NCBI GenBank assembly: GCA_035291665.1
Contig: DATDRP010000006.1
Location: forward strand, 74,961 to 138,960
Length of the DNA stretch: 64,000 bases
From: Patescibacteria group bacterium
Lineage (GTDB): Bacteria > Patescibacteriota > Microgenomatia > UBA8517
Direction: 5' to 3'
Shown here: positions 2,379 through 8,529 of the stretch, piece by piece
Position numbering within the stretch: the first letter of the stretch is position 1
Layout of the letters: each line of letters starts with the position of its first letter
The notes under the pieces: model-generated
What the model saw: the letters and a program-made list of their open reading frames with translations, nothing else
Told to the model about the DNA's origin: nothing
Database searches by the model: none
Position numbers and translations under genes: made by a program

Positions 2379-4346
2379 ATGGGAAAAATAGTTGGAATTG
2401 ATCTAGGAACAACTAATTCGGTGGTTGCTGTAATGGAAGGGGGTCACCCCAAAGTGATTCCTGCAGCTGATACCGGGCGAAACATCACGCCGTCGGTAGT
2501 GGAACCTGTTAAAAATCTTGTCGGAGATGTCGCCAAGCGCCAGGTTGTTCTTAATCCGAAAAACACAATTTATTCTATAAAGCGTCTTATGGGACGCCGG
2601 GTTGATGACGCTGAAGTTGAAAGAACCAAAAAGATGGTTCCGTATGAGATTGTTTCTTCAAAAGATAAAAACGCGGCGGTTGAAGTTGATGGTAAGACTT
2701 ATACTCCTCAGGAAGTTTCGGCAAGGATTTTGATGAAGCTCAAGAAGGATGCGGAAAGTTATCTTGGGGAGAGTGTTGACGCTGCGGTAATCACAGTACC
2801 TGCATATTTTGACGACTCTCAAAGACAAGCGACGAAGCAAGCGGGTGAAATTGCCGGATTTAAGGTTGAGCGAATTATCAATGAACCGACAGCTGCAGCC
2901 TTAGCATACGGGTTGGATAAAAAGAAAGCAGAAAAAATTGCCGTTTACGATCTTGGAGGAGGGACTTTTGATATTTCAATTCTTGAACTTGGTGATGGAG
3001 TGTTTGAGGTTAAAGCCACAAATGGAGATACCCATCTTGGAGGAGATGATTTTGATGAAAAAATCGTTGAATGGATCGTTTCTGAATTTAAAAAAGACAA
3101 TGCGGTTGACCTGACGGCTGACAAGCAGGCACTTCAGCGTGTTCGCGATGCTGCTGAAAAAGCGAAAATAGAACTTTCTGCAGCCGCCGAAACGGAGATC
3201 AACCAGCCGTATATAACACAAAAAGACGGAAACCCAATGCATTTGACTTTGAAAATGACCCGGGCGAAATTGGAGGATCTTGTTGGGGATCTCATTGAAA
3301 AAACAATGAAACCGGTTGAGGCATGTCTGAAAGATGCGAAACTGGATCCGCACGATATTGATGAGGTGATCATGGTTGGGGGAATGACGAGAATGCCCAA
3401 AGTTGTTGAGGAAGTAAAGTCATATTTTGGTAAAACTCCGAACCAGTCGGTTAATCCGGATGAAGTTGTTGCAGTTGGAGCCGCTATCCAAGCCGGAGTC
3501 TTGGGGGGCGAGGTTAAAGACATACTTCTTTTGGATGTAACTCCTTTGACATTGGGAATAGAGACACTTGGAGGTGTTGCGACCCCGATGATAACCAGAA
3601 ATACAACTATTCCTGCATCAAAGACAGAAACATTCTCAACGGCTGCTGACAACCAGACTCAGGTAGAAATTCATGTATCCCAAGGTGAGCGTCCGATGAG
3701 CGCTGATAATAAGGATTTGGGCAGGTTCATTCTCGATGGAATTCCGCCGGCACCAAGGGGCGTTCCTCAGATCGAAGTAACTTTCGATATTGACGCATCG
3801 GGAATTTTGAAAGTTACCGCCCATGACAAAGCAACCGGCAAGAGCCAAAACATTACTATCTCGGGCGCTGTGGGACTTTCTGATGATGAGGTCAAAAGGA
3901 TGCAGGATGAAGCGGAGCATCACAAAGCTGAAGACCAAAAGAAAGCTGAGAAAATTACTGCCAGAAATTCAGCTGATGCAATGGTATCTGCAGCTGAAAA
4001 AGCTCTCAAAGACGCCGGTGACAAAGCACCAAAAGATATCAAAGAAAAAGTTGAGGAAAAGATTAAAGGCGTCAAAGATGTTTTGGCAAAGGAAGATTCT
4101 TCAAAAGACGATTTGGAGAAAGCAACGAAAGATCTGTCGGACACCCTAAGTCAGGTCGGGCAGGCGATGTATGGGCAGCAACAAGCTGCAGGGCAAAGTG
4201 AAAAGAGCGAAGAGAAAAGCACGGAAGAAAAAAAGAGTGAAGGAGATGGTGAAAACAAAAAATCTTCAAAAGACAAAGATGAGAAAGCCAAAAGCCCTGA
4301 GCCTGCCGAACGGGTTGAAGAAGGAGAAGTTGTAGAAGAAGACTAA
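2379..4346 (+). CDS. dnaK: Chaperone DnaK (Hsp70)
   Basis: Canonical Hsp70 motifs: [26 protein letters not shown]. 655 aa with a K/E-rich C-terminal tail. Confidence 0.97.
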
Positions 4347-4349
4347 AAA

Positions 4350-4637
4350 ATGACAGATGACCTCGAAAACCAGGATTACTCCAGAATTTATATCCAACTG
4401 GGTTTATCAGAACAAGCTATAGAGAAATTAAAGCCTGAAGAAAAAGCCGCAATCAGTAAATTTGATAAAGCTGTGGATAAAAAAGAACGAAGTTTGGGAA
4501 GGGAGTTAACCCCCGAAGAGGAGAATGAGTTGGCAGGAACGATTGAAGGGGCATCTGAGGCAAGAATAAACTATGAAAAGTTTTATTCGGAATTAGCCGA
4601 CCAAGTCGATAAAACGGAGGGGTACGATACAAAATAG
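4350..4637 (+). CDS. Hypothetical small acidic protein (95 aa) inside the dnaK operon
   Basis: Intact ORF that starts 4 nt after the dnaK stop. No recognisable domain. Confidence 0.4.
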   Translation: MTDDLENQDYSRIYIQLGLSEQAIEKLKPEEKAAISKFDKAVDKKERSLGRELTPEEENELAGTIEGASEARINYEKFYSELADQVDKTEGYDTK

Positions 4638-4641
4638 CTTT

Positions 4642-4887
4642 ATGTCTCCGGAAAATTTAACCCCACTTGAATCGTTCAATAGGAAAAGAGACTTGCTCCT
4701 TGAAGAATGGGAACAGGTTCATGGAGACAAATCTAACTGGAGTTATAATTTAACCGACCGTTTTGTTGATGCTGTATTAAGTTCGGTAACTTATGAGGAG
4801 GGTCTTGCCCACAAACGTGACACTGATCAGTGGTTGAGAACGAAAGCGCTCGCTGTAAATAAATATAATCAATACCATAGAAATTAA
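4642..4887 (+). CDS. Hypothetical small protein (81 aa) inside the dnaK operon
   Basis: Intact ORF 5 nt after the previous one. No recognisable domain. Confidence 0.4.
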   Translation: MSPENLTPLESFNRKRDLLLEEWEQVHGDKSNWSYNLTDRFVDAVLSSVTYEEGLAHKRDTDQWLRTKALAVNKYNQYHRN

Positions 4888-4890
4888 CTC

Positions 4891-4945
4891 TTAACAAACT
4901 CCCCATAGATTTATATAATTAGCACTTGAGATATTTGAATGCTAA
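4891..4945 (+). promoter_or_regulatory. Second promoter plus CIRCE operator upstream of dnaJ
   Basis: -35-like TTAACA at 4891-4896, then a 17-nt spacer, then -10 TATAAT at 4914-4919. This overlaps CIRCE at 4919-4945: TTAGCACTT-N9-GAATGCTAA, 16/18 to the CIRCE consensus. Confidence 0.6.
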
Positions 4946-5105
4946 TTGCCGTCCTCTTAAAATCCTAGTATCCTAATATCTTAATATCATTCTGAAATAT
5001 GGTTGGAAAATCCGATTACTACGACCCCGTACTGTTCTTACTTGCTCCCAAGTACTACGTGCTTGCGTCGCAAGAGCGAAAATACGGGGCAGGCATTTCT
5101 TGACT

Positions 5106-5996
5106 ATGACAACAAAAAGTGATTATTACGATATACTCGGAATTAATAAATCCGCTTCAGCGGATGAGATAAAAAAAGCTTACAGAAAGCAAGCTCTTGA
5201 ATGGCATCCGGACAGACATAAAGATGATAAAGAAGCCGCTGAGAAACGCTTCAAAGAAGTTAATGAGGCATATCAGGTACTTTCCGATCCGAAAAAGAGA
5301 TCGGCATATGATCAATTTGGCCATCAGGCATTTGCTCCCGGTGGAGGTTTTGGCGGACAGCCTGGTACCGGACCATTCGGACAGCAATCCGGTCAGTATG
5401 GTCCTTTTACATACACTTATACAACAAACGCAGGAGGTGGAGGAAATCCCTTCTCCGGATTTGACTTCGGAGACCCTTTTGATATTTTCGAAAGCTTTTT
5501 TGGTGGGGGAAGCGGGGGATTCAGGCGTGCCCAGCAGCTTCCCCGATACAGTATAAAAATAGATTTCATGGATTCGATAAACGGAGTCGAAAAGAATGTT
5601 GAAATCGGCGGCAAAAGAAGGAAAATTAAAATCCCTCCGGGAATTGATGAAGGTTCAAGGATAAAATTTGATGACTTTATTTTATCGGTCAATATTGCTC
5701 CGCATGAAGTTTTTGAGCGTGACGGAGCGGATATTTATATGCGCTACGAGATTCCGTTTTCACTGGCAACACTCGGCGGGGAAATAGAAATTCCAACTGT
5801 AGAGACGCTTGTGAAAGTCCGTATCCGCCCCGGAACCCAATCGGGTACGATGCTTCGCCTCAGGGGGAAAGGTGCACCCAATTTACATGGACATGGCAGA
5901 GGTGATCAATATGTGAGAGTGAATATTCTGATCCCCGACAAACTATCCCGAGAACAAAGATCTGCGGTTAATGACCTGAAGAGGGAGGGATTATGA
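5106..5996 (+). CDS. dnaJ: DnaJ-like J-protein lacking the zinc-finger domain (class B/CbpA-like)
   Basis: J-domain with HPD ([33 protein letters not shown]), a G/F-rich region and the C-terminal substrate-binding domains. No cysteine anywhere, so there is no CxxCxGxG repeat. The listed ORF starts at a TTG at 5100. The ATG at 5106 gives MTTKSDYY. Confidence 0.8.
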
Positions 5997-6027
5997 CATC
6001 CTCCCCGTCTTGAAAGGCGGGAGGATT
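5993..6027. repeat. REP-like miniature palindromic element, copy A (ATGACATCCTCC plus GC hairpin)
   Basis: ATGACATCCTCC at 5993-6004 overlaps the dnaJ stop. The stem atcctccc / gggaggat encloses cgtcttgaaaggc. The same 12-mer begins copies at 15809 and 49496. Confidence 0.5.
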
Positions 6028-6177
6028 ACTTGAAATATCGAACAACTCTGGCCTCACAAGAATGTAATTCAAGAAGTAAATAATTCCATCTGACGGAAAT
6101 TAAAACAATTCGTTGTGTACGGCTCCCGTTTTTATATTCATGTCGTTTTTAATATTTTCAGTATTTTATATTCACTG

Positions 6178-6198
6178 CATCACTACATAGTGATGTAG
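6178..6198. promoter_or_regulatory. Palindromic 21-mer CATCACTACATAGTGATGTAG, copy 1 (downstream of the TrpR-like gene)
   Basis: Core CACTACAT-AGTG-ATGTAGTG is an 8-bp inverted repeat. An identical 21-mer is at 6752-6772. Confidence 0.6.
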
Positions 6199-6200
6199 TG

Positions 6201-6737
6201 TTAACGTTTTTGGTAGCTTTTAAACTCTTCCGATAAGTCTTCCCTTATCTTTCTATTTACTGCCTCTTTTTCTTCGACACCTTTAAAAAATTTCTCCAAT
6301 TTCATATTTTGATTTTTAACAATGGAATGTTCCACCAGAGTCAGAAGTACTTGTGGGAGTTGAAATTCGATAGGGATGCGTGGAAGTTCCTTAGGAAAAT
6401 CGTATTTAGCAGGTAACTTTGCGATTATTTTTCTGAAACCGTTTCCACCTTTTAAAAGCCAATTACTAACCTTCGCAACCGTACCAAAGCTGGTATGAAG
6501 TGTTTTAACAATATCTATTTGTGTTTCCCCTTTTAATAAAAGCTTTGCAATACGGAGTCTTATAGCCAAGTTTTGTATTTCCTTTGCTGTCAGAAGATCT
6601 TGAAGAAAATCGGCGGTATCCATGGCATTTCTGACTGTTTTAAAAGAATTGATTAGATCAAACATTAATTCCAGTCTCTCTTCTTTTGAAAACTTTTCCT
6701 CTCTTTTTATTTTTGGGTAATATGTTCTTCTTCTCAT
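6201..6737 (-). CDS. TrpR-like DNA-binding protein (YerC/YecD family) with a ~70-aa C-terminal extension
   Basis: The segment FLQDLLTAKEIQNLAIRLRIAKLLLKGETQIDIVKTLHTSFGTVAKVSNWLLKGGNG matches the YerC/TrpR helix-turn-helix core. Confidence 0.6.
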   Translation of the reverse strand: MRRRTYYPKIKREEKFSKEERLELMFDLINSFKTVRNAMDTADFLQDLLTAKEIQNLAIRLRIAKLLLKGETQIDIVKTLHTSFGTVAKVSNWLLKGGNGFRKIIAKLPAKYDFPKELPRIPIEFQLPQVLLTLVEHSIVKNQNMKLEKFFKGVEEKEAVNRKIREDLSEEFKSYQKR

Positions 6738-6751
6738 TTATATTCTTACTA

Positions 6752-6772
6752 CATCACTACATAGTGATGTAG
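6752..6772. promoter_or_regulatory. Palindromic 21-mer CATCACTACATAGTGATGTAG, copy 2 (15 nt upstream of the TrpR-like start codon)
   Basis: Identical to 6178-6198. Its position fits an autoregulatory operator. Confidence 0.6.
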
Positions 6773-6908
6773 ATATTAATACTATTTATTAAGCAAGGCA
6801 GATACAATGTGTACTAATAAACCTCTCATAGGATTTCCTCAATTATATACGGATCTATACGGCTCTGAAAATTAAAAGTGATATAATCTCTGTACCTGTC
6901 CAATACCC

Positions 6909-7886
6909 ATGGACGATTTGTTTTTAGCAATATTTCTTCTTACTCCTATTGCATGGATAGTTGCCATGATTCGACCGGGTTTATTTTCCAAAATCCCCAT
7001 TAAAAATTTAAACCGGAAGAAATTAACAGGAATTTTATTGGCGCTTTTTATTGTCTCGTTTGTGGGTTTTGGAGTTACTTCCAAACCGGTTGAGGAAAAT
7101 GTAAAAGAAGAAGTGCAAAGTTCATCAACCGAAGAACAGGACACAAACGTCTCTTCGGTTGAAGTTGAGGGCGGTGTTGCGGTTGTCAAAAGGGTTGTTG
7201 ACGGGGACACGATTGAGTTGGATAGCGGTGCCAAAGTCAGATATATCGGGATTGATACTCCTGAGTCGGTTGATCCGAAAAAACCGGTTGAGTGCTACGC
7301 TGAAGCAGCTTCAAAGAAAAATAGAGAATTAGTTGAGGGTAAAGAGGTCCGTCTTGAAAAAGATGTTTCGGAAACCGATCGCTACGGAAGGCTTTTACGG
7401 TATATTTGGATCAACGACAGTTTAATAAATGAAATTCTTGTTCGGGAAGGGTATGCCCGCTCAAGCACATATCCGCCGGACGTGAAATATCAGGAGAGGT
7501 TTCAGATTGCCGAAAAAGTTGCCAGGGAAGAAAAATTGGGTTTATGGGGAGAGGAGTGCGTGATAAAGCCAACTCCGACTTTGGTTCCGTCAGCCAAACC
7601 GACAGTTTATATTGCTCCCACAAAAGCTCCAACTACTTATTATGTTGCTCCGACATCTGTTCCTTACGTTGCACCCACCAACCTTCCGGCAGCAGTAAAT
7701 CAGCAAACCGGTGGCCAACCGGGAGGAGGAGGGACATCGGGGTCTTGGTCTTGCGACTGTTCAAAGACTTGCCCGAATATGTCATCCTGCGCAGAAGCGT
7801 ATTTTCAGTTGAATAACTGCGGATGTTCAATCCGCGATGGAGACGATGATGGAGTCCCTTGCGAATCTATCTGTTCGGGAGGATAA
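6909..7886 (+). CDS. Secreted or membrane-anchored thermonuclease (SNase-like) with a C-terminal Excalibur calcium-binding domain
   Basis: N-terminal hydrophobic segment(s). SNase core (VVDGDTIELDSGAKVRYIGIDTPE ... RYGRLLRYIW ... EKLGLWG). A P/T/A-rich linker with YVAPT repeats. A Cys-rich tail with DGDDDGVPCE (Excalibur DxDxDGxxCE). The start codon is uncertain. Confidence 0.75.
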   Translation: MDDLFLAIFLLTPIAWIVAMIRPGLFSKIPIKNLNRKKLTGILLALFIVSFVGFGVTSKPVEENVKEEVQSSSTEEQDTNVSSVEVEGGVAVVKRVVDGDTIELDSGAKVRYIGIDTPESVDPKKPVECYAEAASKKNRELVEGKEVRLEKDVSETDRYGRLLRYIWINDSLINEILVREGYARSSTYPPDVKYQERFQIAEKVAREEKLGLWGEECVIKPTPTLVPSAKPTVYIAPTKAPTTYYVAPTSVPYVAPTNLPAAVNQQTGGQPGGGGTSGSWSCDCSKTCPNMSSCAEAYFQLNNCGCSIRDGDDDGVPCESICSGG

Positions 7887-8029
7887 ATATTAAATTCAAC
7901 CCCAATAACCACTCAGAAAAATTCGTTACCGATTTTTTGAAAATCCTTGCAAGATAATTATTTCTCGTTTGTTGTCGACGGCCTCTTAATGTTGAATAAA
8001 ATTATTATTTTGGAGTTTTTGTGCACGAC

Positions 8030-8278
8030 TTAATCTTCGTGTTTTATTTCTGGCTCATTACCGAGCAATCTTTTCAACACCTGATCCATTCGGTAGAGAC
8101 GTAATTTCATAGTTTGGGCTAACGTCCCGAATACGCTTTTTACAATTTCTTCCTCTTCGGGAGAAGTGGGTTTCTCACAGTCGATCCATTTTTGAAACTC
8201 ATTCATAAGCTGATATGACTTTAACTGATCGGCAGACATTACCGAAAAGTCGGGATCACTACTTTTATTTTTTTCCAT
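8030..8278 (-). CDS. Hypothetical protein (82 aa)
   Basis: Intact ORF on the minus strand with no recognisable domain. Confidence 0.3.
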   Translation of the reverse strand: MEKNKSSDPDFSVMSADQLKSYQLMNEFQKWIDCEKPTSPEEEEIVKSVFGTLAQTMKLRLYRMDQVLKRLLGNEPEIKHED

Positions 8279-8413
8279 AATGTAATTATACCTTATAGTT
8301 AAAAATTAATAAATCAATTTGTTTGGTAAAGCTTAATTTAATGTAACTCATCTTACGATTTATTGACTCGGAAACGCATTACTTGTACACTATCAGTGGT
8401 TAGAAATGGATGA

Positions 8414-8441
8414 GGTGGGAATTTTGCCCGCCTTTTTTGTT
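8414..8441 (+). terminator. Intrinsic-terminator-like hairpin in the nusA leader (candidate attenuator)
   Basis: Stem GGTGGG / CCCGCC (6 bp with one G-U pair), loop AATTTTG, then TTTTTTGTT. It lies after a TTGACT (8363-8368) ... TACACT (8386-8391) promoter and 90 nt upstream of nusA. Confidence 0.4.
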
Positions 8442-8529
8442 AGTTGGCGCAAAGAGAAAAGCGAAGAGTGAAAAGCAATAAACTTTGTACTTTGAACTTT
8501 TTTCTATGTACTAACGCAAAGCGTTTTAT

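Follow-up and report, generated by a model that had tools for sequence, protein, structure and literature searches.

A TrpR/YerC-family regulator of Microgenomates whose gene lies between two candidate operators

A small regulator gene of an ultra-small groundwater bacterium stands between two copies of one palindrome, and the locus raises the question of what such a bracket is for. A reading made from the sequence alone (hereafter, the sequence-only reading) had offered two answers: the upstream copy could be an autoregulatory operator, or the two copies could be the terminal repeats of a tiny mobile cassette. A large part of bacterial diversity belongs to the Patescibacteria (CPR), a group whose gene regulation is almost wholly uncharted. 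The question reaches beyond a single locus. Throughout, the window means the whole stretch of DNA that was analysed, 64 kb in length, and coordinates given without a locus name refer to it.

The gene occupies positions 6201..6737 on the minus strand and encodes a 178-aa protein of the TrpR/YerC family. Pfam PF01371 (Trp_repressor) matched residues 28-107 with 53.8 bits against a cut-off of 27 (E 2e-14). The NCBIfam YerC/YecD model (TIGR02531) gave a borderline 41.7 bits, just under its cut-off of 42.2. When the family profile was compared with the PDB, E ~1e-12 was obtained for the YerC-like structures 3frw, 3kor and 3g1c, and ~1e-4 for E. coli TrpR; hhalign related the family to E. coli TrpR with a probability of 93%. 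The AF2 model, calculated for a monomer (pLDDT 85.7), consists of TrpR-like helices at residues 18-106, a Pro-rich linker at 107-126, and a long helix at 127-177. YerC-like and TrpR structures were the only Foldseek matches (3g1c, 3frw, 3kor, and 1tro; target TM 0.74-0.85). In the hhalign alignment, the TrpR pocket residues T44, R54, T81, and R84 correspond to T50, R60, T86, and K89 of the present protein, all of them conserved, and an invariant tryptophan (W93) takes the position of TrpR S88. The C-terminal extension of about 70 residues (aa 105-178; coding region 6204..6425, minus strand) is conserved throughout the family. When this extension was searched against 1.84 billion representatives, only the regulator family was matched, at the equivalent position, and no other protein architecture that carries it was returned. 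Pfam, the PDB profile, AF2, and Foldseek therefore agree with the original description of a TrpR/YerC-like regulator with a C-terminal extension of roughly 70 residues.

The palindromes themselves were also found much as first described. The 21-mer CATCACTACATAGTGATGTAG occurs as two identical copies that flank the gene, at 6178-6198 and 6752-6772. A third copy was not found in the 64-kb window with up to three mismatches allowed, which brings the number of further copies there to zero; neither a relaxed 18-mer search with three mismatches nor a single-arm search of the same 64 kb gave another site. A general palindrome scan of the 64 kb found 12 strong palindromes, as compared with 0-2 in shuffled sequence, and only the bracket pair among them is of the bracket type. 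Some details of the sequence-only reading had to be corrected. The flanking position holds, but the exact spacings (15 nt and 3 nt) do not, the distances being 14 nt from the 21-mer to the ATG and 2 nt to the stop codon. The 8-bp core dyad proposed, CACTACAT/ATGTAGTG, was mis-specified: it is present in the downstream copy only and, because of an internal 8-bp repeat, represents a secondary register, the true dyads being longer. The upstream candidate operator (6749..6772, no strand assigned) reads CTACATCACTA-ca-TAGTGATGTAG and is perfect in its 11-2-11 symmetry; its distance to the ATG at 6737 is 11 nt, and relatives have homologous sites at the equivalent position. The downstream candidate (6173..6200, likewise without strand) is a 13-2-13 palindrome, CACTGCATCACTA-ca-TAGTGATGTAGTG, with 13-nt arms and one mismatch, and directly adjoins the stop codon at 6201-6203. 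The palindromes at the gene start and stop thus measure 24-28 bp. Both belong to a 35-nt direct repeat (6164..6198 on the plus strand, partner 6738-6772; 86% identity), whose copies have the palindrome and the flank TTATATTC in common.

Could the pair have arisen by chance, or belong to a generic repeat spread over the genome and unlinked to the gene? What speaks for it is that an unrelated dispersed repeat in other metagenomes includes the identical 18-mer core. However, dinucleotide-preserving shuffles give an expectation of 0.00 copies of the 21-mer and none was seen elsewhere in the 64 kb, the contigs with the unrelated repeat differ in composition and are without a TrpR-like gene, and the bracket recurs throughout the family with different sequences. 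We regard this explanation as effectively refuted. The unrelated repeat was met in a metagenome scan for CATCACTAYRTAGTGATG, in which it dominated the matches listed, and a single useful relative (L077) was recovered; the source contig was not among the matches listed. About 110 of the 120 loci among the matches listed (L047-L166) carry it as a highly conserved element of at least 78 nt, ACGTCGTTTCTGATGACGTCACGATTACGTCATCACTACGTAGTGATGTGATAATATTAGGAATAAATTTTCTATTTT, which contains the same 18-mer core as the bracket palindrome (e.g., L104 1292-1369). The ACGTCGTTTCTGATGACGTCACGATTACGTCATCACTACGTAGTGATGTGATAATATTAGGAATAAATTTTCTATTTT contigs among the matches listed come nearly all from the JGI sets Ga0056123, Ga0056131, Ga0056132, Ga0209681, and Ga0209788, and have a GC content of about 0.37-0.47; none of them has a TrpR-like gene.

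The recurrence of the bracket is the central observation of this study. The protein has 421 homologues with full-length conservation, and every reliable taxon label among them is Patescibacteria/Microgenomates. For comparison, 46 genomic loci were fetched. In most of these 46 loci, a palindrome directly precedes the start codon, and its match directly follows, or overlaps, the stop codon. With a 20-mer core and at most four mismatches, 27 of the 30 analysable Microgenomates loci gave a single upstream and a single downstream site, and almost no other site was found within 3 kb on either side of the 30. The bracket is also present in L077, L178, and L184. Furthermore, the two palindromes of a locus belong together. 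The shared upstream/downstream match score averaged 18.1 within loci and 8.9 between loci, the within-locus match exceeded the 95th percentile in 30 of 44 loci and the 99th in 24 of 44, and identity over a 28-nt frame was 0.86 within a locus versus 0.49 between loci. Protein and operator divergence were correlated (Mantel r = 0.35), a value reached by none of 2000 permutations. Even paralogues of one genome have differing palindromes (L001, L005, and L020; also L007 and L009). The regulator family and its layout were found in no paper of the library searched. The recurrence of the bracket in most relatives across Microgenomates, with a palindrome particular to each lineage, points to a self-contained module of autoregulation whose layout has not been described before.

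What kind of protein would such sites fit? The 56 aligned sites follow the pattern nnnTACAnnnnTAY|RTAnnnnTGTAnnn, with a mean dyad symmetry of 0.82. The TAC/GTA triplets are conserved across these sites, and the tetranucleotides between them are lineage-specific. Self-identity of the arms peaks at a shift of 8 nt (0.62, as against 0.07-0.34 at other shifts), and therefore each candidate operator is built from 8-bp-phased units. Such units are the arrangement known for tandem TrpR dimers, and PDB 1TRR ('tandem binding') was among the Foldseek fold matches. Judged by their sequence pattern, the candidate sites are compatible with TrpR-type binding by tandem dimers offset by 8 bp.

Promoter elements coincide with the upstream copy or lie just 5′ of it. 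A putative proximal promoter (6779..6807, minus strand) consists of a -35 element TTGTAT at 6807-6802, a 17-nt spacer, and a -10 element TAGTAT at 6784-6779, and its predicted transcription start coincides with the operator edge. Because it scores a weak 7/12 to consensus, we infer this promoter rather than assign it. It can be aligned with the promoters of two orthologous loci, L077 and L178, which have the form TTGACA-17/18-TAnnnT, and in the upstream regions of the window, L077, L178, L001, and L003, a -35/-10 pair is aligned just 5′ of the operator. A consensus scan also detected a distal, consensus-like promoter at 6842..6871 on the minus strand (TTCAGA-16-TATAAT or TTTTCA-18-TATAAT). It is the better consensus and lies 69 nt upstream of the operator, which tells against the autorepressor reading; distal-type consensus sites are no more frequent in the window than in shuffles. 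If the distal promoter were used, the operator would lie at about +63 to +86 in the leader. Whichever promoter is used, the operator covers the transcript start or the leader. Where a locus has a perfect TTGACA -35, its -10 element falls within the upstream palindrome or precedes it by no more than 8 nt.

This position bears on another explanation, according to which the palindromes act as RNA hairpins, the 5′ stem-loop serving translation or stability and the 3′ stem-loop acting as a terminator or stabilizer. The folding energies agree with it: the sense-strand folds have -15.4 kcal/mol (5′ copy) and -13 (3′ copy), the antisense fold of the downstream copy has -17.3, and z is about -3.4 to -4. 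The 28-bp site of L178, moreover, nearly fills the 46-nt gap between two convergent genes. On the other hand, in many loci the -10 element is inside the upstream palindrome, and therefore the 5′ arm would not be transcribed. The two copies are alike in sequence and not just in pairing potential, the mismatches between sense arms are without wobble bias (G.T 5, A.C 7, other 9, all of them small numbers), and neither direction shows a U-tract behind the downstream copies (28 loci, with 3.4-4.4 T of 12). No Rfam family matches the sites; the Rfam search of 5500-7500 returned nothing near threshold. We think it improbable that the palindromes work chiefly at the RNA level. An intrinsic terminator was likewise rejected as a general explanation of the downstream copy, for which the terminator scan gave no call and the 28 loci gave no U enrichment.

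The surroundings of the gene were as first described: dnaJ (5100-5996) is convergent to the regulator gene on one side, and a gene for an SNase-domain protein (6909-7886) is divergent on the other. When the window, L001, and L077 were aligned, the palindrome was the sole element conserved from the stop codon to dnaJ, and on this ground we rejected the idea that the gap beyond the downstream site holds a conserved small RNA or ORF. A GC-rich hairpin at 5983-6030, GGAGGGATTATGACATCCTCCCCGTCTTGAAAGGCGGGAGGA, overlaps the end of dnaJ; it is distinct from the downstream palindrome and probably is the dnaJ terminator. The SNase protein is hydrophobic in an N-terminal segment and has a C-terminal tail rich in Cys and Asp, and an extended -10 element (TGaTATAAT) at 6879-6887 lies 21 nt ahead of its ATG.

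With such neighbours, the protein could be chiefly a local regulator of adjacent genes, and the two sites the operators of those flanking genes, which in the window would include the divergent SNase gene. Levybacteria-type loci fit this idea in that the downstream gene mostly runs in the same direction, with a -10-like TATACT and an SD-like sequence after the site. A third site is present in L021 beyond the next gene, and the upstream site of L178 lies in the region common to the divergent nusA. In about half of the loci, however, the downstream neighbour is convergent, and the functions of the neighbours are heterogeneous. In the window, the site lies about 110 nt from the extended -10 of the SNase gene, and the downstream neighbour is the convergent dnaJ with a hairpin of its own. 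We consider control of the neighbours as the main role unlikely. The more specific proposal that the downstream site is the operator of one conserved downstream gene was ruled out by the mixed orientation and the heterogeneous functions of the neighbours.

The genomic context also bears on the second answer of the sequence-only reading, the tiny mobile cassette. In a fuller form of this explanation, palindrome-gene-palindrome would be, or formerly have been, a mobile or selfish cassette, the ends of which are marked by the HTH protein while a recombinase acting in trans moves it into intergenic junctions of conserved operons. The ancestral gene order in Woesebacteria is hrcA-grpE-dnaK-dnaJ-nusA-infB. 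In L173, L176, and L177 (Woesebacteria), dnaJ is followed directly by nusA with no cassette, whereas the dnaJ|nusA junction is otherwise filled in L174 (an rve integrase) and L175 (two GNAT acetyltransferases), and in L178 the cassette sits exactly at this junction on the opposite strand. The cassette also adjoins dnaJ in the window, L001, and L003. The cassette-bearing genomes are not grouped together by DnaJ similarity, and therefore its presence is patchy. Other family members lie at further junctions of core operons, at S10|L3 (L184), nusG|L11 (L021), L15|secY, and L7/L12|ATP-grasp, as well as beside S7 and NusB. Two more features favour mobility: the site-gene-site-gene-site array of L021, and a gene GC content below that of the flanks in 30 of 34 loci (mean difference -3.9 GC points; in the window, 34.1% for the gene versus 40.3% overall). 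Low GC is, though, a trait of the family, and does not decide the question of mobility.

Several details of these junctions are recorded here for their own sake. The variable dnaJ|nusA spot of the window (5997-8529) holds the cassette, the SNase gene, and an 82-aa ORF. In L184, the normally uninterrupted junction of rpsJ (S10) and rplC (L3) is split at 3401-5377 by a family member together with a gene for a 23S_rRNA_IVP-domain protein and a 127-aa ORF. In L021 (2272-5952), a family member is inserted together with a Methyltransf_11 gene between nusG and rplK, and the palindrome occurs three times, namely before the regulator, between both genes, and after the methyltransferase (4404-4433). The cassette-free dnaJ-nusA spacers of L173 (3945-3975) and L177 (3975-4005) contain the conserved terminator-like sequence GGTGGGATTT(G/T)(A/T)GCCCGCCATTTTTTTT.

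Against mobility, Pfam shows the Trp_repressor domain alone and no recombinase, and the neighbours are dnaJ and the SNase gene. There is no second copy or paralogue within 64 kb, identical proteins occur in one context only, and no relatives were found in the viral, phage, and plasmid collections IMG/VR, INPHARED, and PLSDB. As stated at first, with terminal repeats of a tiny mobile element, the idea is unsupported by these searches for a recombinase, for extra copies in the 64 kb, and for phage or plasmid relatives. In L173, L176, and L177, where nusA directly follows dnaJ, the empty junction contains no matching palindrome. The palindromes are therefore not a target duplication. L009, L010, and L027 share their context, yet their operators have strongly diverged, which argues for long residence in place. 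Finally, the -35 element of the promoter lies outside the bracket. On balance, a mobile or formerly mobile cassette appears an unlikely account of the bracket.

We regard a TrpR/YerC-family repressor that has one cognate composite operator before its own gene and another behind it as the best reading of these sequence comparisons, and as a reasonably probable one. The family-wide bracket at start and stop codons, the lineage-specific palindromes, and the promoter elements at the upstream copy give strong support to the autoregulatory operator that had been proposed at the outset. According to this model, each 24-28-bp composite palindrome, with its 8-bp-phased TAC/GTA units, should accommodate two tandem dimers, as the E. 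coli trp operators do. The upstream operator would span the transcription start and the leader, and protein bound there would shut off its own synthesis. A small-molecule ligand in the conserved TrpR-type pocket probably modulates this autorepression. The downstream operator, which adjoins the stop codon, would be bound by the same protein and may stabilize occupancy of the promoter-operator through a DNA loop of about 570 bp, with the long C-terminal helix as a possible higher-order oligomerization element that holds the loop. The centre-to-centre distances between operators range from 521 to 713 bp across loci; no helical phasing of these spacings was seen, and none is expected at such length, the test being uninformative above 500 bp. 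As an alternative or additional role, the downstream operator might act as a protein roadblock and shield the gene from convergent or read-through transcription.

One consideration speaks against an autorepressor of this kind: operators that regulate only their own gene would leave the cellular function of the module unexplained. There is also a bolder proposal. The modules could be ligand-gated roadblock or insulator units at core-operon junctions, where they would couple or uncouple the transcription of adjacent operons on a nutrient signal. In this proposal, which we rate as improbable, the repressor would be clamped on both sides of its gene at the junctions dnaKJ|nusA-infB, S10|L3, L15|secY, nusG|L11, and L7/L12. 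Were it correct, it would amount to a simple growth-control device for genome-reduced Patescibacteria with several orthogonal paralogues per genome, and the importance of the modules would be much greater if they also gated the neighbouring core operons.

The present study defines a widespread, Microgenomates-specific subfamily of TrpR-like regulators, and predicts the cognate operator, its grammar, and specificity positions for dozens of lineages. The duplication of the operator at the 3′ end of the regulator gene is an unusual, conserved layout. It provides a test case for the function of a 3′ operator (looping versus roadblock) in minimal genomes. Moreover, the loci yield ready-made protein/operator pairs for biochemistry and a natural set of orthogonal repressors and operators.

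How does this arrangement compare with known systems? The modules resemble dif/pdif modules in having a single gene between palindromic sites of about 28 bp at variable junctions. They differ in that no linked recombinase and no multi-copy spread were seen here, and in that the sites differ between paralogues of one genome (L001, L005, and L020); one host recombinase could therefore not serve all of them.

The closest relatives in sequence and among solved structures are the YerC/HisR proteins (3frw, 3kor, and 3g1c). YerC is the Firmicutes histidine repressor HisR; its sites are 20-bp palindromes, and autoregulation occurs in about half of the HisR proteins (PMC9413887). The HisR motif cacTTTAnnnnnnTAAAgtg is found upstream of genes for histidine biosynthesis and transport, and binding to a 20-bp palindrome and frequent autoregulation are common to HisR and TrpR, for which the motif is TGTAcTnGTnnACnAgTACA (PMC9413887). 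In contrast to HisR, which has fewer than 100 residues and no extension, the present regulator has 178 residues with a conserved 70-aa extension. Its operator grammar is TACAnnnnTAY|RTAnnnnTGTA and not cacTTTAnnnnnnTAAAgtg. No histidine-pathway gene was found among the immediate neighbours of the family loci, and no 3′ operator has been described for HisR.

E. coli TrpR shares the fold and the family with our regulator, which has conserved equivalents of the pocket residues T44, R54, T81, and R84. The trpR gene is autoregulated. Palindromic operators with short half-sites every 8 bp are a further likeness. TrpR lacks the Pro-rich linker and the 50-aa C-terminal helix of the 178-aa regulator, and its operator units are CTAG/GNACT, whereas those described here are TAC/GTA. 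No tryptophan-pathway genes were noted near the regulator gene, and, unlike TrpR, the regulator has a second candidate operator at the 3′ end of its gene.

The looping repressors offer a further comparison. Lambda CI acts through OL-OR, which encloses cI, LacI through O1-O2, and GalR through OE-OI. In each of them, one protein has at least two operators, placed on both sides of a transcription unit. Looping takes at least two cognate operators in cis, and two matched candidate sites were found in 27 of the 30 loci. With lambda cI the likeness extends to the regulator gene itself, which is inside the operator bracket, and the modelled C-terminal helix may represent an extra oligomerization element comparable with the C-terminal helix of LacI. 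The regulator described here belongs, however, to another protein family, and its bracket encloses one small gene and is bounded exactly at the start and stop codons.
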